From a virus: 64,000 bases of DNA. Made by a program: the position numbers and the translations under genes. Under the pieces are notes generated by a model. That model was not told the DNA's origin, did not search any database, and saw only the letters and a program-made list of their open reading frames with translations. Of this stretch, positions 4,491-45,944 are shown one piece after another (within the stretch, counting starts at the first letter, position 1; each line of letters opens with the position of its first letter). Where the stretch lies: the IMG/VR virus record IMGVR_UViG_3300045988_073620, positions 1-64,000 of that record; one strand, written 5' to 3'.

Positions 4491-4766
4491 CTATTCTTTT
4501 GTGCCAAACTCAACTGGCATTTCCTGTCCTTTGAATCTAATGCTTTCGATTTCTCCGATGCCTTTCTGGTTCACTTGTAACAGTTTTAAATCCGTTGATA
4601 AATTTAAAGCATTCAGATCAATGGAAAGTGTCGGCATTGAGTTCCCAACCTCCTGCTTCAGTTCGAAGCTTCTTACTCCCTCAAGTCTGTGGCCGTCTAC
4701 AAGGATTTCTGTAAATACTCCCTGTTCCTGCTCAACCTGATGGATTTCAATTTTTGATGCTTTCAT
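4491..4766 (-). CDS. hypothetical protein
   Basis: ORF track. Confidence 0.55.
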   Translation of the reverse strand: MKASKIEIHQVEQEQGVFTEILVDGHRLEGVRSFELKQEVGNSMPTLSIDLNALNLSTDLKLLQVNQKGIGEIESIRFKGQEMPVEFGTKE

Positions 4767-4802
4767 GTTTCTCCTTTCTAGTTAAGAAATTTGTAGATAG
4801 TT

Positions 4803-5024
4803 TTAATCTGTCTGATTACTTTCTGGAACTTTCGGTTCAAGAAACTTGTCAGTCCCAACAGATAACGCCCCGCAAATTAATTCGTATTCATCGAAATCTA
4901 ATCTGCGATTTCCATTGAGAGAAAGATTGAGTTTCTGAACAGGAATGCCAGTTTTGTTGGCGACAAATGTCTGCGTTATGCCGTTGTTTTCAAGGTACGA
5001 CTTAATCTTTTTGCCAACGCACAT
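4803..5024 (-). CDS. XRE-family HTH regulator (Cro-like position)
   Basis: The sequence ...ITQTFVANKTGIPVQKLNLSLNG... looks like an HTH. The gene is divergent from the CI-like gene. Confidence 0.8.
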   Translation of the reverse strand: MCVGKKIKSYLENNGITQTFVANKTGIPVQKLNLSLNGNRRLDFDEYELICGALSVGTDKFLEPKVPESNQTD

Positions 5025-5044
5025 TCTTCATTTCTCCTTTCTAC

Positions 5045-5150
5045 TTGAATTTCGTTCCCATCGAACAATTATAGTATAACTTCGAAATATCCGAATGTCA
5101 AGAATAAATTTCGAGAAAATCGAAATTATTTTATTGACAGCTCGAAACTT
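5045..5150. promoter_or_regulatory. operator-like repeats (TCGAAA half-sites, about 6 copies) between the divergent promoters
   Basis: The motifs aatttcgtt, catcgaac, cttcgaaat, atttcgaga, aatcgaaat and gctcgaaac all occur here. Confidence 0.5.
5073..5102 (-). promoter_or_regulatory. leftward early promoter (TTGACA-N18-TATACT)
   Basis: Read on the minus strand in the divergent intergenic region. Confidence 0.6.
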
Positions 5151-38098: not shown

Positions 38099-39850
38099 TT
38101 ATCTCCTTCCCCAGAGTGGATTGTGTACTGCCTTTACGACGCCCGTACCACTTCCATTTTTTAAAAACACAGCTAAGCTGGCAAGCGCGTCGGGCGCATC
38201 ATCATGCTTATTCTTTCCTGTCATAGTAAATGAATACACATTATTCATGAATTTTCTGTATTCGGCATTTTGATATCCAGTATCTCTGAAATAAAATCTT
38301 CTGATATTTTCTGCGTTGTCCCATATTCGCTGCTCTTTTCTTACTGCAGACTTTGGGGCGTGTCCCCCATTATTTAAAATCATCTGCTGTGCATATTTAG
38401 AGGTAAGATTTGTTTCGTATCCTTGTTTTTGCAATTCAGCTCCAACCTCATCCTTATATCCCTCGCCACCTGCATTGGCTTCAAAAAAAGCATTGGTTAT
38501 TTTATTGTTAATAATTGATGCTACAACTTTTGGCATAGTATATATCTTCTCAGCGTTGTCATACACAACATCGTGAATATATACAGAACCATCTTCGTAC
38601 ACATAAGCTACCGGCATTGCCAAATAGTCGCTTCCGCCTAAAGCAACGTCGCACGCAGACACAACTTTTAAAGGTTCTTCGTCTGGAAGCTGTCCGTTAT
38701 AGAAATTCATGTGTTGAGAATTAAATAATGCTCCATCTCTTTCAATTGGCTCCTGCTGATACTGAGCCAACCATCCTGCCATGTCGTCATTTTCTTCAAA
38801 TTTAGATCGAATAGTACGATAGTACTTTGTACTATAACCCACTCCGTAGTCATAATCGAAATTGCTTTCATCCGTTTCCGGGTCAAGAGCAGAGATTTTT
38901 AACACATCATATCGAATATCTTTTGCTTCTGGATTATTTTGTAAAAACGAAAGCCTGTCCATGTAAAGATCATGCAACGACCAAATAGTACCGTTTAAAA
39001 TCAGTTTGCACTGTTCTTTCTTTCGAGACATAACATTGTTGTCAAATACGATCTGCTTCCTTCGGAGTATATCCGGGTTCAATACGTCTTGAATACCTTC
39101 CAAGATATCATCCAGAATCAGCCAGCCATATGCGTCATACTCACCATTCAAACCAGATTCCAAACCTTTCCCAGACAAAGTGGCATATTTTTTCTTTCGT
39201 TCAAGGTCTACTTTATGATTTTTCGCATCTGTTCTGGCTATTTTTGAATGAAATACATCTTCATGGCAATATGTAGGGTCTGTCCAAATTTCCATAACAC
39301 CATCAAGGAACGCACCACCAAGTCCCTCTTTGTATGTGACATAAAGGTTACTTATTTCTGTGTTTCTTGCGCAATGCCAAGATGTTCCTACTGTTATAAT
39401 TTGCGATTTACCAGTTCTGGCAGGTTGATGCAGAAACAATTCGTCGAGTTTATCATCTTCAAGGGCTTGCAGCTTATCGACAACCTTTTTCAAAGTCCTT
39501 CTTCTGGGCTGATAGAAGCGTTCCTGTGGCTTCCTATTCTTTTCAATGTACAATGCGTAAGAATCCAATAAATACGGTGCTTCTAATAACAAATATTTCC
39601 AGTAAATATCGTCAAAATCTCCGCTTCCAGTGATAGCAGCTTGCCTTTCTGCGATATTGTGTGCATACTGGCTTACCTTTATTCCCATCTGTTGCGCATC
39701 TGGATTATCCTTGAAAGGAAGGTCAATATTCATATTTAACAGCAGATCAAGGCAGTCTTTCTGGTTTTGATAGACCGTCATATCACCATTAATGATTTGA
39801 TTTAGAATTGCCCGATACCATTCAAGCGAGCCTTCTGTGAATTTTTGCAT
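38099..39850 (-). CDS. terL: terminase large subunit
   Basis: Walker A-like PARTGKS, Walker B-like WLILDDI and the nuclease-domain motif ...KNKHDDAPDALA. Confidence 0.9.
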   Translation of the reverse strand: MQKFTEGSLEWYRAILNQIINGDMTVYQNQKDCLDLLLNMNIDLPFKDNPDAQQMGIKVSQYAHNIAERQAAITGSGDFDDIYWKYLLLEAPYLLDSYALYIEKNRKPQERFYQPRRRTLKKVVDKLQALEDDKLDELFLHQPARTGKSQIITVGTSWHCARNTEISNLYVTYKEGLGGAFLDGVMEIWTDPTYCHEDVFHSKIARTDAKNHKVDLERKKKYATLSGKGLESGLNGEYDAYGWLILDDILEGIQDVLNPDILRRKQIVFDNNVMSRKKEQCKLILNGTIWSLHDLYMDRLSFLQNNPEAKDIRYDVLKISALDPETDESNFDYDYGVGYSTKYYRTIRSKFEENDDMAGWLAQYQQEPIERDGALFNSQHMNFYNGQLPDEEPLKVVSACDVALGGSDYLAMPVAYVYEDGSVYIHDVVYDNAEKIYTMPKVVASIINNKITNAFFEANAGGEGYKDEVGAELQKQGYETNLTSKYAQQMILNNGGHAPKSAVRKEQRIWDNAENIRRFYFRDTGYQNAEYRKFMNNVYSFTMTGKNKHDDAPDALASLAVFLKNGSGTGVVKAVHNPLWGRR

Positions 39851-41730: not shown

Positions 41731-42210
41731 TCACTCCTTTATGTCTATTCCTCTTCCAGCTTTGTAACAATCTGCTATATATGTTCTATGTACATCTTCC
41801 ATAGGCTGACAATCTTTTTTATCAAGTAATGTGGCCTTTGCGTTATAAATTGTCTTAATCCTATCAGATTCGAGATAAAATTCACTATGAAATTTAGTTT
41901 TGCAGTTCATGCAAATCCATTCTGCGTCAGTTCTCAAGCCTGCAGCATCTACATCACCGCAAAAGAAATCCACTCCTGTATTGATTACTACTCCTCCGCA
42001 AAACGGACATTTACGTTTGTCTCGTAACGATAAATTATTTTCCATAATTTTATTTTTCTTGCCCTTCCTGTGCTTTATTTGACACTCGATCATCTTTGCT
42101 ACATTCTCACGTTCCTGTTTTATTCCATGCCCCTGACGAAATAACTCGCATTCGAGAATATTTCCACATCTGGAACATTCGTCTTTGATTTCTTTGCCGA
42201 ATACTTTCAT
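41731..42210 (-). CDS. zinc-ribbon-containing hypothetical protein
   Basis: CxxC pairs: CSRCG, CPFCGG and CMNCK. Confidence 0.55.
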   Translation of the reverse strand: MKVFGKEIKDECSRCGNILECELFRQGHGIKQERENVAKMIECQIKHRKGKKNKIMENNLSLRDKRKCPFCGGVVINTGVDFFCGDVDAAGLRTDAEWICMNCKTKFHSEFYLESDRIKTIYNAKATLLDKKDCQPMEDVHRTYIADCYKAGRGIDIKE

Positions 42211-42572
42211 TCCACATCTCCGTATATCAGCAGTTTAATAATTTGCTCTTCTGTAATTTCCTTCGCATTGATTCCAAGCCATAAATCTTTATATTGCAAA
42301 GAATTATATAGTTCATTAATTCTACTTATCCGCATTTCAAACGGTTTGTCACTTTGTAAGAAATAACTAGCTGCACCACGAAGTGTTTTTGTTCTATGAG
42401 GTGAATTAATAATAAAAATCCCTACAGTACATGTTTCCGTTTCCAAAATAAACGTTTTCCTATTGAACTGCACTATCGGTGTTTTGCTATGTATTTTATT
42501 AAATAATTTTATTAGAAAATAATCTGCATCTTTATAATCAACCGCCACGTACAACGCTGATATTTTACTCAT
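42207..42572 (-). CDS. hypothetical protein
   Basis: Start at MSKISALYV behind GGGAGGGTG. The longer track ORF runs through tRNA sequences. Confidence 0.55.
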   Translation of the reverse strand: MSKISALYVAVDYKDADYFLIKLFNKIHSKTPIVQFNRKTFILETETCTVGIFIINSPHRTKTLRGAASYFLQSDKPFEMRISRINELYNSLQYKDLWLGINAKEITEEQIIKLLIYGDVE

Positions 42573-42708
42573 TTTCAACACCCTCCCAGTATTTACAACA
42601 ATCGTCCAGACATCTAAAGTCTGCACAATGTTCACTGTCACCATTACAGCAGACGCCTTCTTCCAGTTCGTACCATTTGCATGTGCAAAAATAATCTTTT
42701 CTTTCCAT
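42565..42708 (-). CDS. Cys-rich 47-aa protein
   Basis: Hand translation gives MERKDYFCTCKWYELEEGVCCNGDSEHCADFRCLDDCCKYWEGVENE. Confidence 0.45.
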   Translation of the reverse strand: MERKDYFCTCKWYELEEGVCCNGDSEHCADFRCLDDCCKYWEGVENE

Positions 42709-42730
42709 ATTCTCTCATCAAAATAAAAAT

Positions 42731-42781
42731 TCCAGTACACGGACTCGAACCGTAACTTGCCACCCAACGTGGAGTACTGGA
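42731..42781 (-). ncRNA. 51-nt minimal tRNA-like element (acceptor + one hairpin + T-arm; no anticodon arm)
   Basis: Acceptor TCCAGTA/TACTGGA, hairpin CCAC-GTTGG-GTGG and T-arm TACGG-TTCGAGT-CCGTG. Confidence 0.5.
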
Positions 42782-42837
42782 AACCGAAGCAAGGTAAAAG
42801 AAAAAGAAATTTTTCCAATGATTGCAGTTCATTGGAA

Positions 42838-42909
42838 TCGGAATGGCAGGAATCGAACCTGCGACACATAGCTTACAATGCCATTACTCTACCACTGAGC
42901 TACATTCCA
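42838..42909 (-). tRNA. tRNA-Thr (UGU)
   Basis: Hand-folded cloverleaf: D arm GCTC-AGTGGTA-GAGT, anticodon arm ATGGC-ATTGTAA-GCTAT, T arm GCAGG-TTCGATT-CCTGC and a 7-bp acceptor. Confidence 0.85.
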
Positions 42910-42960
42910 TACCGCCTGTAATGGGCAGTTAAAAAACTGAGTTGATTTTCACCTTATATT

Positions 42961-44412
42961 TCATTCAACAGTGATACAATCGTATCTTTCTGAATTGATT
43001 GTGTTTTCCATGGCTTCAATTGGATTATATCCAAGATTCTGTAATACCTGTTTGAATACTGTTACCGACTGGCCACTTGCAAGCTGCACACCTTTTCTTG
43101 TAGCATCTGCATGAAATACATCATGTCTGCTGTCGACATTCCAGAAAATTATATTCGGAATAACATATCCGGCTTTTCGGAATTTCTTTTCCATTTTGTC
43201 ATAGAAAGACCAGTCCTTATTTCCGCTATAATCAATCTCCATATCAGAGATAACAACTATAGCTTTCGGCATTTCTTCCTGTGAAACGTTATTCTTCTCA
43301 GCAATATCGAGCACTTTCTCAAATGCAGCTTTAAGGTTTGTGCTACCGCCCCAATTTGCTTTTGCAGTATTGATTATTTTCTGGTGAAGTGTTTCGCCCT
43401 TTAATGTGACAATCTGTGGATTGCTAGAGAATGTCATAAACAAGTTATGATATGCACCCGTATTTCTCTCAGCAAAATATATCGCCAATCCGATTGATGT
43501 TGCCATTGGTCTTCCATACATTGAACCGGATACATCAGCCATAATCAAAGCGTTTGTTCCCTGTTTAACATAATCTGGAAGTGCTTTCCATTGTGCTTCA
43601 AGAACTTTGTTACTTTCTCTTCCATTAAGGATTTTCTCTACAATATCGTACGGATACAAGGTTGATGCATTGATCTTAACTTCTCCTTTATCAGCTTTAT
43701 TAATAAATTCACTAAATCCATCAGGATCATGTTTTGCAAAAGCCTTGCGATAAATCATCATTGCACGGCTTGGAACTTCTGGATATTTAATCTCGTTCCA
43801 CTTACCTGCAGATATGAGACTTTCGACAACACCTATCTGCTTTCTCATGCTGCGAACGATTCTCTTGAAGTTGTAAACTGGATAGCCTAACTTCTGTGCA
43901 GTCAGGATTCCTAGTTTTCTAGTCTTTGCACTACTTGCGTCAGCAGTTTTAATCCATTTGGCAAGCAGAGAAATTGCTTTGCCATCATTGAGATTCTTCA
44001 GATCTTCCTCGAATTGATTTTTCATGGTTTTCCACATATCATCTTCCAGTGGTGTTCCAATCAATTCATAAAGATCATCGTATCTTCCAAACACTCCAAT
44101 CAAATCAAGGTTCGGCCTGAGTGCTTCTGGATGGTGTTCCGCCATATAACGAATAATGGTTCGGAAAGTTTTTCTTTCTCCTAATCCCTCTCGAATATCT
44201 CTTGCGTAAAAAGCAATCTTCGTAGCAAAGAGTTTATCCTGCGCATATGCTTCTGAGAACAATGTAGTGGTTCTATTCTCATCAGCATCTCTTAATGCAC
44301 CAATAGTTCCGAATAGATCAAGCCTTGCGTCACTTGTGGTATTCAGCGCAACTGCGCCATTCTCGGTTCTTGTAAACTTACTTTCTTCTTTCATTGCATT
44401 TGCAAAATCCAT
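42961..44412 (-). CDS. DUF2828-like protein: helical N-terminal region + C-terminal vWA domain with MIDAS motif
   Basis: 483 aa. The C-terminal half carries ...ALIMADVSGSMYG... (DxSxS) and ...GGSTNL.... Family assignment is from memory. Confidence 0.7.
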   Translation of the reverse strand: MDFANAMKEESKFTRTENGAVALNTTSDARLDLFGTIGALRDADENRTTTLFSEAYAQDKLFATKIAFYARDIREGLGERKTFRTIIRYMAEHHPEALRPNLDLIGVFGRYDDLYELIGTPLEDDMWKTMKNQFEEDLKNLNDGKAISLLAKWIKTADASSAKTRKLGILTAQKLGYPVYNFKRIVRSMRKQIGVVESLISAGKWNEIKYPEVPSRAMMIYRKAFAKHDPDGFSEFINKADKGEVKINASTLYPYDIVEKILNGRESNKVLEAQWKALPDYVKQGTNALIMADVSGSMYGRPMATSIGLAIYFAERNTGAYHNLFMTFSSNPQIVTLKGETLHQKIINTAKANWGGSTNLKAAFEKVLDIAEKNNVSQEEMPKAIVVISDMEIDYSGNKDWSFYDKMEKKFRKAGYVIPNIIFWNVDSRHDVFHADATRKGVQLASGQSVTVFKQVLQNLGYNPIEAMENTINSERYDCITVE

Positions 44413-44566
44413 GTTTTTCTCCTTTCAGGACACAAAATATAAAATACACGCCTAAGATTTTATTTAAGAATGAGTTGCTGTAAGTGTCCCATATTTTTCT
44501 TCATGATGCTTTTGGTTTTCATAATTAACAGTTATGTCCAAATGAATTGCTGTAAGCATCACATAA

Positions 44567-44657
44567 TTGCCCCAACAGGATTTGAACCTATAAAATTATT
44601 TGCAGTAAAGAACACAGACATGTTCCGTCGGTTTCCCACAACCGACAAACTGGGGCA
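44567..44657 (-). ncRNA. 91-nt non-canonical tRNA-like RNA
   Basis: Perfect 7-bp acceptor TGCCCCA/TGGGGCA and T-arm ATAGG-TTCAAAT-CCTGT. The core has hairpins GTCGGTT-N6-AACCGAC and GAACA-TGTCTG-TGTTC (6-nt loop) but no standard anticodon arm. Confidence 0.5.
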
Positions 44658-44658
44658 G

Positions 44659-44773
44659 TGGCAAGGGGTGGACTCGAACCACCGACAAGTACCTTGTAAT
44701 GGAAAGAATTGCTGTAGAAGTCACGAACATGACTTACAATCTTTTACTGCTCTACCAACTGAGCTACCTTGCC
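44659..44773 (-). ncRNA. 115-nt tRNA-like RNA with the anticodon arm replaced by a long irregular helix (or an intron-containing tRNA)
   Basis: Acceptor GGCAAGG/CCTTGCC, D arm GCTC-AGTTGGTA-GAGC and T arm GGTGG-TTCGAGT-CCACC are canonical. There are 65 nt between the D and T arms. Confidence 0.55.
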
Positions 44774-44896
44774 ATATTCACCGCCTTTAACGGTCAGATA
44801 TTATCTGGGCTGAATTTCACTTCTTTCGCTATAGCGTAAATCCACCAGAAACATAGACCGTCTGTATACAAACAGCTTAACTCTAAGCGGATTAAA

Positions 44897-44965
44897 TCGG
44901 AAAGGATGGATTCGAACCATCAAGACCTAGTCGACTAGCCCGTTCCCAGTTACTTGCACTTTCCG
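44897..44965 (-). ncRNA. 69-nt degenerate tRNA-like element
   Basis: Acceptor CGGAAAG/CTTTCCG and T-arm GATGG-TTCGAAT-CCATC. The core is about 5 nt short and contains only the palindrome CTAGTCGACTAG. Confidence 0.4.
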
Positions 44966-45291
44966 AATAACCCGGAAGCCCCGGGTTAGCAATATGTTTA
45001 TCGTGTTATGCTTTCCACTAGGCTGTTTTATACCGTGCCAGCCCCACGGAGTTGTTTCGGATATTTATGCCCTATAGGTGATATAGAGCGAACCTTGTAC
45101 GGACTCCTGCATTCCTTAAAACTCCTAGATTCGTCAACCCATTAAACTCCGGAATGCCACCAGATAAAGTGAAGTCGTAGCGCGTAACTCGTTGCCGTAT
45201 CACCCGGTTATCGCAGTCCTTTCGATTCTCAATTATCTGGTAAAAATTTTTCCATCCAAGATAACGGCTCAGATGGCATTTGATGGAGAAA

Positions 45292-45365
45292 TGGACATTC
45301 TGGGGTTCGAACCCAGGACCGCCCGGTTATGAGCCGGGTTCTCTGACCTGCTGAGATAAATGTCC
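45292..45365 (-). tRNA. tRNA-Met (CAU); could be Ile2 if lysidine-modified
   Basis: Hand-folded: GGACATT-TA-TCTC-AGCAGGTCA-GAGA-A-CCCGG-CTCATAA-CCGGG-CGGTC-CTGGG-TTCGAAC-CCCAG-AATGTCC-A. Confidence 0.85.
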
Positions 45366-45471
45366 TAAGTAGAGGCGTTATTAGGCAACTCAAGAGCAAC
45401 GTTCCTCTACTGTTACGGTTCATACCCTCACAGCCGTAACAAAGGGTCTGATTGTTCTGCGCCATGCAGAA

Positions 45472-45524
45472 TACCATCCGGGGCATTTGAAGCCCCTTTG
45501 ATCATCCCCGTTGGGATAGATGGA
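45472..45524 (-). ncRNA. 53-nt minimal tRNA-like element
   Basis: Acceptor TCCATCT/GGATGGT (6 of 7 pairs), hairpin ATCCC-AACG-GGGAT and T-arm GGGGC-TTCAAAT-GCCCC. Confidence 0.4.
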
Positions 45525-45570
45525 ACCAATTCGGAGGGGAACTATATCATGGCTAAACAATATAGTCCGA

Positions 45571-45642
45571 CTGGGCTAGCGGGATTCGAACCCGCGAATA
45601 CAGCAGTCAAAGTGCTGTGTCTTACCACTTGACGATAGCCCA
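45571..45642 (-). tRNA. tRNA-Gln (UUG)
   Basis: Hand-folded: TGGGCTA-TC-GTC-AAGTGGTAA-GAC-A-CAGCA-CTTTGAC-TGCTG-TATTC-GCGGG-TTCGAAT-CCCGC-TAGCCCA-G. Confidence 0.85.
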
Positions 45643-45944
45643 TTGTTTTCCCGGGAAACCACTCCCGGGAAGTGATATATTCTGGTGTTTTAGAAAGCAT
45701 CCATGACATTGTTAAGTCCGCGCCAGTTACTTTACAGATGATCCGGGAAATAATTAATCTCATCGGTGTTTCACCAACGCAGACCTAAGCTACTCTGGAT
45801 GCCTCGACCTGTCAGATTCAAAGGCTTTCCCGAACCTGAGAACGACAGGCTTCTGCTTTTCTTGTATTTTCACCCGTTCAACCAGTATGGTGAACAGGGG
45901 AATTTGTATTGTGAATGCTAACCACATTGGGTTCTCCTTATAAC

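Follow-up and report, generated by a model that had tools for sequence, protein, structure and literature searches.

The window analysed here comprises 64,000 nt of viral DNA (positions 1 to 64,000 of the IMG/VR record IMGVR_UViG_3300045988_073620). Within it, the stretch 42730-45940 is encoded on the minus strand throughout and carries three canonical transfer RNAs (tRNAs), five non-canonical tRNA-shaped elements, which we call E1 to E5, and one gene, coding for a protein with a DUF2828 domain and a DUF7788/von Willebrand factor A (vWA) domain (Table 1). An original prediction, made from the sequence of the window, had listed these features and had proposed a ribonucleoprotein (RNP) system with a protein laid out like Ro60 and with tRNA mimics as its RNA partners. 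As to the inventory, we arrive at the same picture. The three tRNAs are called concordantly by ARAGORN and Rfam, and the DUF2828 gene is the sole convincing open reading frame (ORF) of these 3.2 kb, while the remaining listed ORFs overlap with tRNAs and look spurious. A 220-aa ORF at 42207-42869 (minus strand) crosses E5 and enters tRNA-Thr; its 5' end is probably not a real gene, and automatic annotation of this ORF would mask E5. At least five elements with well-paired acceptor stems and T arms around abnormal cores had been predicted. When the whole window was scanned for acceptor stems of 7 bp that run without a gap into a T stem of 5 bp with a TTCRANY loop, exactly five were returned besides the three tRNAs, all of them in this stretch and on the same strand.

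Table 1. Features of the minus-strand stretch 42730-45940, listed in the direction of transcription. Positions are those of the window. MFE z, z-score of the minimum free energy; R1, covariance model built on stand-alone RNAs (see text).
Feature	Position	Strand	Length	Description
Structured non-coding spacer	45643-45940	-		upstream of the array; 16-bp and 10-bp hairpins within 45643-45790; MFE z -4.07 for 45643-45790
tRNA-Gln(UUG)	45571-45642	-		ARAGORN and Rfam
E1	45472-45525	-	~53 nt	mini tRNA-like: acceptor stem, D-arm-like hairpin, T arm; no anticodon arm, no ACAGCAA
tRNA-Met(CAU)	45292-45365	-		ARAGORN and Rfam; followed by a terminator-like hairpin (45252-45276)
E2	44897-44965	-	69 nt	tRNA-like; anticodon loop replaced by a tetraloop (CUAG-UCGA-CUAG); no ACAGCAA
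E3	44659-44773	-	115 nt	tRNA scaffold (acceptor stem, D arm, T arm) with the module in the anticodon arm; MFE z -4.1
E4	44567-44657	-	91 nt	tRNA-shaped, without D arm; MFE z -3.9
Leader RNA 1	44502-44563	-		stand-alone; GUGAUGC-UU-ACAGCAAU...GCAUCAU; R1 42.1 bits, E 6e-7; MFE z -2.7
Leader RNA 2	44426-44491	-		stand-alone; GGGACAC-UU-ACAGCAAC...GUGUCCUG; R1 36.1 bits; MFE z -2.0
Gene for the protein with predicted Ro60-like fold	42961-44412	-	483 aa	DUF2828 helical N-terminal domain and DUF7788/vWA domain with intact metal-ion-dependent adhesion site (MIDAS)
tRNA-Thr(UGU)	42838-42909	-		just 3' of the DUF2828 gene; ARAGORN and Rfam; followed by a terminator-like hairpin (42813-42837)
E5	42730-42781	-	~52 nt	mini tRNA-like: acceptor stem, 4-bp hairpin with GUUGG loop, T arm; no ACAGCAA

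The protein is a member of the Pfam families DUF2828 (E 1.7e-41, 142.9 bits, cut-off 29) and DUF7788 (E 1.9e-40, 138.9 bits, cut-off 27.1), and it also matches VWA_2 and PHROG 850 ('RNA-binding protein', E 8e-138). Its MIDAS residues (D293-x-S295-x-S297, T358 and D390) are invariant in 82 homologues. An AlphaFold2 model was built on 82 diverse homologues and attained a predicted local distance difference test score (pLDDT) of 91.8 and a predicted template modelling score (pTM) of 0.90. When this model was compared to the PDB with Foldseek, the eight best matches were all Ro60/TROVE structures, including 9kop, Ro60 from Thermus phage phiLo (9l5y), Xenopus Ro60 (1yvr, 1yvp, 2i91) and Ro60 complexes (9nfa, 9nep). 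These are full-length alignments of 516-584 columns which include the N-terminal helical domain (template modelling score, TM, 0.46-0.57; E 4e-9 to 2e-6; probability 1.00), and the next PDB matches are to vWA domains alone, with a TM of about 0.2. In its overall structural alignment, the predicted model shows the order typical of Ro60, a helical-repeat ring domain followed by vWA. Thus the layout originally proposed for this protein, helical N-terminal and with a MIDAS-bearing vWA fold at its C-terminus as in Ro60/Rsr, is borne out by the model, including the similarity of the N-terminal region to TROVE, and a Ro60-like protein is supported at the level of the predicted fold.

A link to Ro60 by sequence was also sought and had to be given up: phmmer and an eight-sequence profile against the PDB yielded vWA proteins only (8s05, 5a8j). 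A separate profile search, aimed at more diverse homologues, gave no relatives beyond the close ones. As the PDB sequence and profile searches reach only the vWA half, the link to Ro60 rests on the fold search.

DUF2828 is a large family, with 6,652 cluster representatives at 50% identity and with homologues in 710 of 50,697 sequenced phage genomes. Among these 710 records, the mycobacteriophage proteins are labelled 'Ro-like RNA binding protein' and many others 'RNA-binding protein'. The family reaches giant viruses (Pithovirus, with a TM of 0.90, Marseillevirus, CroV, ChoanoV1 and Bodo saltans virus), and DUF2828-fold proteins have also been described from plants. The original prediction was aware of no described function for DUF2828 proteins. 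This has to be corrected, as the family is already annotated as Ro-like and a likely homologue, Bas63 gp130, has a phenotype (see below); the protein side is already half-known from annotations and one preprint. A metagenomic homologue of 575 aa (P0122, 64% identity) has an additional precomputed Pfam match to PF01912, which suggests a fusion protein. Further homologues (39-41% identity) occur on two contigs, L243 and L246, that are binned to Asgard archaea (Promethearchaeota metagenome-assembled genome, MAG) and could represent an archaeal virus or a binning artefact; on L246, a match to the covariance model R1 described below is found upstream of the homologue (1412-1467, 24.6 bits).

The odd RNAs were compared among 80 close relatives of the locus from IMG/VR (L001-L080, 86-98% protein identity), in which the composition of the array is mosaic. 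ARAGORN calls none of the five, and the Rfam tRNA model (RF00005) reports none of E1, E4 and E5, matches E3 with 49.4 bits only if a 53-nt insertion in the anticodon arm is allowed, and matches E2, which has no anticodon loop, with 27.1 bits, just below the gathering threshold of 29. Nearly all of the 80 relatives have E3-type elements (114-127 nt) immediately 5' of the gene, and L070-L080 have four to five E3 paralogues in tandem which differ in their acceptor and D-arm sequences. In the E3 family, compensatory changes were found at 13 of 19 pairs, and 99.1% of the aligned cells are paired, compared to 40-51% in slid controls. The corresponding values are 5 of 17 pairs and 97.5% for E1 (at most 58% in slid controls) and 8 of 16 pairs and 99.6% for E5, which is present in L001-L069. 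The relatives of E2 have kept the closed 'anticodon' stem with differing sequences (CCUGGUC/GACUAGG, CAGAGU/ACUCUG), and E4 is present or absent as a precise module. In the window, the folds of E3 and E4 are far more stable than those of shuffled sequences (Table 1). The original prediction had named decay products without covariation as a finding that would speak against it. Because the odd RNAs are conserved in relatives and show compensatory base changes, the comparison indicates that they are maintained and are not decay products.

Two of the odd elements, E3 and E4, have a module in common with two stem-loops of about 65 nt in the leader of the DUF2828 gene, so that the window phage has four copies in total. 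The module consists of a short helix, 1-3 nt, and then a single-stranded ACAGCAA(U/A). In both leader copies, the motif follows the 5' stem strand and UU. Leader RNA 1 is kept in the close loci. Leader RNA 2, which terminates 2 nt 5' of the ribosome-binding site (RBS) AAAGGAG, is kept in all 80 of them, with a compensatory stem change in L070. In E3, the hairpin GUCAUG-UUC-GUGAC is followed by UUCU-ACAGCAAU, with the motif at 44708-44715, and all E3 paralogues contain such an inserted hairpin, in which the core UCAUG...GUGA is invariant while the outer pairs covary; after 3-4 nt, ACAGCAA(U) follows. The MFE fold of E3 pairs GCAA with UUGU; as this 5' partner is not conserved, we take the motif to be single-stranded. 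The order of parts in E4 is acceptor stem, an anticodon-arm-like hairpin, a conserved hairpin (GAACAUG..GUGUUC) with UUU-ACUGCAAAU, and T arm. Its motif is a variant, ACUGCAA (44600-44606), while L070-type relatives have the exact ACAGCAAU. The assignment of the module in E3 and E4 is based on the common ACAGCAA and the helix preceding it.

The same module was found beside DUF2828 genes of distant phages, where a stem of 7-12 bp leads, after 1-3 nt, to ACAGCAA(W) and a variable loop, and the 3' strand mostly ends with YCUKG. Of 12 unrelated phages, 11 have the module beside the DUF2828 gene and on its strand; the exception, Yersinia phage Yen9-04, has no exact copy of ACAGCAA. Three copies each are found in Mycobacterium phage JoeDirt and Staphylococcus phage CoN_Ph12 (downstream of the gene), in Listeria phage A511 (upstream), in Enterococcus phage EFGrKN and in Sinorhizobium phage phiN3. 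Salmonella phage Mushroom has four copies of about 60-70 nt between its downstream tRNAs, Bacillus phage MrDarsey has three to five and Campylobacter phage PC14 has two; the module is also present in Fusobacterium phage FNU3, Prevotella phage Lak-B7 and Vibrio phage nt-1, where start codon and 3' stem strand overlap and the RBS is in the loop. Within 600 nt to either side of the gene, 22 exact copies of ACAGCAA were observed on the gene strand in the 12 loci, with 0.89 expected (p ~3e-23), and the loci in their entirety have 42 copies on this strand versus 4 on the opposite one. A stem scoring at least 7 encloses 22 of 27 near-gene copies, compared to 12.6% in shuffled flanks (p 7e-16). Among 20 aligned phage and giant-virus RNAs, compensatory changes occur at all seven stem pairs; as the stems were found by complementarity, a high pairing percentage is true by construction, and it is the sequence diversity that is informative.

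The association holds in the reverse direction as well. From IMG/VR, 120 stretches were picked only for AAGACACNNACAGCAA, and 21 of these carry a DUF2828 homologue, always on the motif strand. We estimate that well under 1% of random phage stretches of about 8 kb would do so, since 1.4% of phage genomes have a DUF2828 gene. For an independent test, covariance model R1 was built on 20 stand-alone RNAs and applied to 80 DUF2828 loci on bacterial and archaeal contigs, picked by protein similarity alone (37-81% identity). At E<=0.1 there were 69 matches in 47 loci, every one on the gene strand; 67 of these are upstream, within about 1.1 kb, and two just downstream. Exact ACAGCAA occurs within 600 nt upstream in 67 of 76 of these loci, with 125 copies compared to about 3 expected. 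By these comparisons, an ACAGCAA RNA appears to be nearly universal beside DUF2828 genes, and small RNAs of the stem-ACAGCAA type are probably the binding partners of the protein family. A promoter function of ACAGCAA was considered and rejected, because the hosts span Actinobacteria to Proteobacteria and because the flanking stems covary.

In the homologous loci, only tRNA and transfer-messenger RNA (tmRNA) reach the gathering thresholds of Rfam, and the window adds RAGATH-18; the elements described here are not covered. Our literature searches on the motif and on DUF2828 found no description of a stem-ACAGCAA RNA. Both the family-wide partner RNA and its grafting into tRNA scaffolds appear to be new.

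The proximity to tRNAs, for which the original prediction had asked whether it extends to DUF2828 homologues elsewhere, is indeed a recurrent feature. The gene is flanked by tRNAs on the same strand in 8 of the 12 diverse phages, and 106 of the 107 tRNAs found within 2.5 kb of the gene in the independent loci are on the gene strand. As only 21 of these 80 loci have such tRNAs, the tRNA array is a frequent companion of the DUF2828 gene and not an obligatory one. In three phages, the RNAs beside the gene resemble the bacterial Y RNA YrlA (RF02553). The matches are significant although below threshold (EFGrKN, 47.8 and 35.7 bits; JoeDirt, 39.8; phiN3, 35.9), each is flanked by ACAGCAA, and the RNAs have a permuted topology with T arm, closed acceptor hairpin and D arm. 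Over the homologous loci, scores range from 30 to 48 bits, below the gathering threshold of 69. In the window, the best YrlA match has 18.2 bits (E=3) and also does not reach that threshold. Here and in other lineages, down to about 45% protein identity, the module resides in the anticodon arm of an E3-type tRNA scaffold with ordinary topology.

RNA-repair genes are found near several homologues: A511 encodes RtcB, an HD phosphohydrolase and an RNA ligase, Yen9-04 has a gene for an RNA ligase and phiN3 one for a macro-domain protein; none was found in the window. Some RNAs in these loci are worth recording in their own right. In A511 (locus L082), a match to ROOL RNA at 4501-5052 (87.5 bits, gathering threshold 99.1, E 3e-16) is located between the tRNA array and the DUF2828 gene. 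In EFGrKN (L086), a phage tmRNA (1116-1466, 143 bits) belongs to the same tRNA array as the DUF2828 gene. Both are unannotated in the records. A suppressor-type tRNA with anticodon UUA, which reads the stop codon UAA, is encoded in phiN3 (L088, 6172-6249), 1.8 kb downstream of the DUF2828 gene.

We propose that the locus is a Ro60-like RNP system in which stem-ACAGCAA RNAs take the role of Y RNAs, and we assign a probability of roughly 0.6 to this reading. In this system, the DUF2828 protein would combine a TROVE-type helical ring, highly diverged, with a vWA/MIDAS domain, and the stem-ACAGCAA module would define its putative partner RNAs. The proposal is backed by the fold similarity, by the linkage of motif and gene in both directions, by the strand bias and by covariation. 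We envisage that the array is transcribed together with the DUF2828 gene and that the acceptor stem and T arm at the ends of E1-E5 would allow RNase P, RNase Z and the CCA enzyme to excise and stabilise the RNAs. The protein would bind the helix-ACAGCAA module, much as Ro60 does with the conserved helix of Y RNAs or with helices that have a single-stranded tail, and the leader copies may give the protein feedback on its own translation. The tRNA-like body may tether or target the particle to tRNA-handling or RNA-decay enzymes, as a Y RNA tethers Rsr to PNPase. A role in RNA surveillance or in counter-defence during infection is suggested by the anti-defence effect of Bas63 gp130 (see below) and by the RNA-repair genes beside homologues. 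The 69-, ~53- and ~52-nt mini-tRNAs, which lack the motif, belong to the same array as conserved structured RNAs and may serve as processing punctuation or as decoys devoid of an anticodon loop.

Bacterial Y RNAs mimic tRNA (Chen et al. 2014, PMC4201824), and complexes of Ro60 and Y RNA have a precedent in phages (PMC4201824, PMC12135203). The DUF2828 locus has several features in common with bacterial Ro60 (Rsr) and its YrlA/Yrn RNAs (RYPER): the predicted architecture of a ring-type helical domain and a vWA/MIDAS domain, adjacent genes for the candidate partner RNAs on the same strand, and the frequent tRNA-like domain of these RNAs, as seen from the sub-threshold YrlA matches. However, the signature of the RNAs differs, being helix-NN-ACAGCAA rather than the Ro-binding helix with its GNCGAA-type motif. 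Also, the tRNA-like RNAs of the window keep the normal topology, with their ends in the acceptor stem, while YrlA is permuted. The partner RNAs envisaged by the original prediction were the tRNA mimics. This remains true to the extent that E3 and E4 are tRNA-shaped and carry the module, but the feature common to the family is stem-ACAGCAA and not tRNA-likeness as such. On the whole, the reported finding is real and its interpretation essentially right, and none of the three checks that the original prediction had named as able to refute it did so. The theme is that of Ro60 and Y RNA, but the protein family and the RNA signature are others.

Two phage proteins allow a closer comparison. Bas63 gp130 from an Escherichia phage is Ro60-like by structure prediction, is encoded directly upstream of tRNA genes, and counters the defence system Ppl, even when it is moved alone into T7; the authors considered that some of the Bas63 'tRNAs' may be Y RNAs and named no RNA motif (PhageMaP preprint, PMC11482910). 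In Salmonella phage Mushroom, like Bas63 a Felixounavirus, the DUF2828 gene is upstream of the tRNA array, exactly at the position of gp130, and from this synteny gp130 is likely a member of the DUF2828 family. The candidate partners in Mushroom are the four stem-ACAGCAA RNAs between the tRNAs and not, as proposed for Bas63, the tRNAs themselves. With its demonstrated phenotype, gp130 differs from the window protein. The other case is Ro60 of Thermus phage phiLo, according to its authors a Ro60 homologue identified by a UniProt search, which binds RNAs with a CGAA motif (PMC12135203). This phage-encoded Ro60-type ring is the second-best structural match to the window protein, and its RNAs Yrl1 and Yrl2 are, like the leader RNAs, encoded just upstream of the gene. 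In contrast to phiLo, the protein of the window is from the DUF2828 family and the RNAs carry ACAGCAA rather than CGAA.

Stable RNAs within a phage tRNA cluster are known from T4, where species 1 and 2 (rnaC, rnaD) are not tRNAs, are released by tRNA-processing enzymes and are of unknown function. We know of no DUF2828 gene in T4.

Several observations weigh against the RNP proposal. At E<=1, TROVE (PF05731) has no match in the window protein or in seven distant phage homologues; with this result and with 11-15% identity to solved Ro60 structures, the protein is, by sequence criteria, not a member of the TROVE family. TM values of ~0.5-0.57 denote the same architecture as Ro60 and not close kinship. 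Three of the five odd elements lack the module, and model R1, being built on stand-alone RNAs, misses the copies that E3 and E4 contain. For the RNAs as well as for the protein, the basis is sequence comparison and a predicted structure. Moreover, since gp130 alone rescues T7 from Ppl, the protein can act without phage-encoded RNAs, at least in the T7 assay. Finally, the most conserved position of the motif is in the 5' untranslated region of the gene itself, ending 30-40 nt before the start codon, and this is fitted equally well by pure cis-regulation.

Such a purely cis-acting leader or operator, perhaps bound by the protein, would act on translation or stability of the DUF2828 mRNA and would require neither a trans-acting partner RNA nor a stable RNP. 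We consider this unlikely as the whole explanation. The upstream position of 67 of the 69 R1 matches, many of them ending at the distance just given, is what would be expected, and so are the arrangement in Vibrio phage nt-1, with start codon and RBS within the RNA, and the end of leader RNA 2 directly ahead of the RBS. It leaves unexplained why JoeDirt and CoN_Ph12 have copies 3' of the gene and Mushroom has them between its downstream tRNAs, why up to four to five tandem copies occur per locus, and why copies are embedded in tRNA scaffolds which bring their own processing signals. Three copies in a tRNA array of a giant virus (see below) have no DUF2828 gene within the 11 kb examined. Autoregulation and a trans-acting RNP are, in addition, compatible with each other.

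It may also be that E1, E2 and E5, and perhaps the whole array, are independent of the protein and function as decoys or sponges that catch tRNA-binding factors or tRNA-targeting defence enzymes of the host, or as punctuation for RNase P and RNase Z. Their adjacency to the DUF2828 gene would then reflect the clustering of accessory RNA genes in phages. The strand agreement of 106 of 107 neighbouring tRNAs speaks against this, the partner RNAs of many lineages contain tRNA-like domains, and a role as decoy is conjecture. Nevertheless, E1, E2 and E5 are conserved with compensatory changes in the absence of ACAGCAA, it is specifically the anticodon loop or arm that they lack, and tRNAs are close to the gene at a minority of the independent loci (21 of 80). 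For this protein-independent reading, we consider the chances to be low.

According to a further possibility, E3-type elements are decoding tRNAs with a small, possibly mobile, intron-like insertion, the removal of which, perhaps aided by the DUF2828 protein, gives mature tRNAs. Several paralogues have the insertion 5' of an intact 7-nt loop AU-NNN-AA, and joining of the insertion flanks completes the anticodon stem: in the window, GUA and CC from either side of the insertion pair with GGUAC around the loop AUUACAA, and in L070_367, GCAGC pairs with GCUGC around AUCCCAA. The scaffolds also stem from different tRNA types. However, a bacterial mechanism for such introns is not known, the insertion point varies between paralogues, and the same module is found as a stand-alone RNA and, in E4, at another position. 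The composite stem could form equally well without splicing, the insertion then being a bulged domain. The distant relatives L217 and L219 have a loop of 9-10 nt which is not anticodon-like; because of this lack of conservation we keep the intron only as a minor, very improbable rival of the RNP proposal. That the odd elements are functionless, decaying tRNA pseudogenes with a compositional coincidence in ACAGCAA is effectively refuted by the sequence comparisons. It is true that pseudo-tRNAs are met with in phage tRNA arrays, with two annotated in Mushroom, and that relatives differ in a mosaic manner in the make-up of the array. However, every helix tested shows compensatory changes, enrichment p-values are 1e-16 to 1e-23, and the strand agrees with that of the gene in 69 of 69 and 21 of 21 cases.

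The genome of the window encodes an integrase, an anti-repressor and DnaC/DnaD-type loaders, with large terminase and portal genes just downstream of the locus; the source is a temperate siphovirus-type gut phage. Its host is probably from the Lachnospiraceae, since the nearest prophage-borne protein homologues (66-69% identity) are from Lachnospiraceae/Acetatifactor MAGs. The block of DUF2828 gene and tRNAs repeatedly adjoins terminase genes, in the window (38099-39850) as well as in Mushroom, MrDarsey and CoN_Ph12 (loci L083, L084 and L090), and in CoN_Ph12 the DUF2828 gene is between the genes for the small and large terminase subunits. The spacer upstream of the array is partially conserved among relatives. 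Within the array, the spacers 45102-45251 and 44774-44896 (minus strand) fold much better than shuffled sequences (z -3.0 and -3.1). As these two and 45643-45790 outfold their shuffles, the array may contain structured RNAs beyond the five elements. Distant from the DUF2828 locus, there is a strong match to RAGATH-18 RNA at 1326-1398 of the window (minus strand, 76.1 bits, gathering threshold 44.9). RAGATH motifs are associated with the neighbourhoods of self-cleaving ribozymes.

An unexpected resemblance leads to the Class I RNAs of Dictyostelium. These are RNAs of about 60 nt with a 6-bp terminal stem, an 11-nt motif beside the 5' stem strand and a 3' CUGU; they are of unknown function, are reported from no organisms other than Dictyostelia, and have the RRM protein Rnp1A as a binding partner (Kjellin et al. 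2021, PMC7919456). In the Rfam consensus, the motif CCUUACAGCAA is just 3' of the 5' stem strand and is followed by a variable loop and the end ...CUG(U), so that Class I and phage RNAs have architecture, size, the core heptamer and a 3' YUG in common. The 20 aligned phage and giant-virus RNAs also show the 6-bp terminal stem, the motif by the 5' strand and the length of about 60 nt, which is a resemblance and not a membership. For DUF2828-adjacent elements in four unrelated phages, RF01414 (Dicty_Class_I_RNA) is the best non-tRNA match in Rfam, over its full length (positions 1-56): leader RNA 2 of the window (44426-44489) scores 24.7 bits, single elements upstream of the genes in FNU3 and A511 score 24.9 and 23.1 bits, respectively, and of the three RNAs that follow the gene in CoN_Ph12, two score 22.4 bits each. 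Kinship with Class I is called into question by the scores, which at 22-25 bits are all far under the gathering threshold of 41.5, and by many phage copies and three giant-virus copies which RF01414 does not report at E<=10. The restriction to Dictyostelia and the binding of Rnp1A also set the Class I RNAs apart from the phage RNAs.

The giant-virus copies are from the MAG GVMAG-M-3300017963-53 (L098), where three stem-ACAGCAA RNAs alternate with tRNA-Leu and tRNA-Arg genes at positions 1-760. All three have the form AAGACAC-UA-ACAGCAAU-(27-28 nt)-GUGUCUUG. The contig is a bona fide giant-virus contig by its genes for Rpb5, Rpb3/11 and NUDIX, and the 11 kb examined contain no DUF2828 gene. A 116-nt tRNA with an apparent intron is encoded at 455-570 (Rfam, 52.6 bits). 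Together with the DUF2828-fold proteins of protist giant viruses and plants, this array may bridge the distance between phages and eukaryotes. It is conceivable, although doubtful at present, that the whole DUF2828 clade, be it in phages, giant viruses or eukaryotes, has stem-ACAGCAA RNAs as its universal 'Y RNAs', with the Class I RNAs as eukaryotic members. If so, Class I RNAs would be the partners of a DUF2828-type Ro-like protein, an RNP module would have moved between viruses and amoebae, and a twenty-year-old orphan RNA class would gain a candidate protein partner and an evolutionary origin.

For the phages themselves, DUF2828 (PHROG 850) is a large family, the carriers of which include model and therapy-relevant phages such as Listeria phage A511, Felix-O1-like phages, and Staphylococcus, Enterococcus and Campylobacter myoviruses. 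A candidate RNA partner that is defined by its sequence would turn the annotation 'Ro-like' into a testable ribonucleoprotein, and would provide a handle on how gp130, as a likely member of the family, counters Ppl. Stem-ACAGCAA RNAs account for recurrent unannotated gaps in and beside phage tRNA arrays. In the tRNA-scaffolded versions described here, a putative protein-binding RNA module appears to have been grafted onto tRNA bodies, which would serve its processing and stability.

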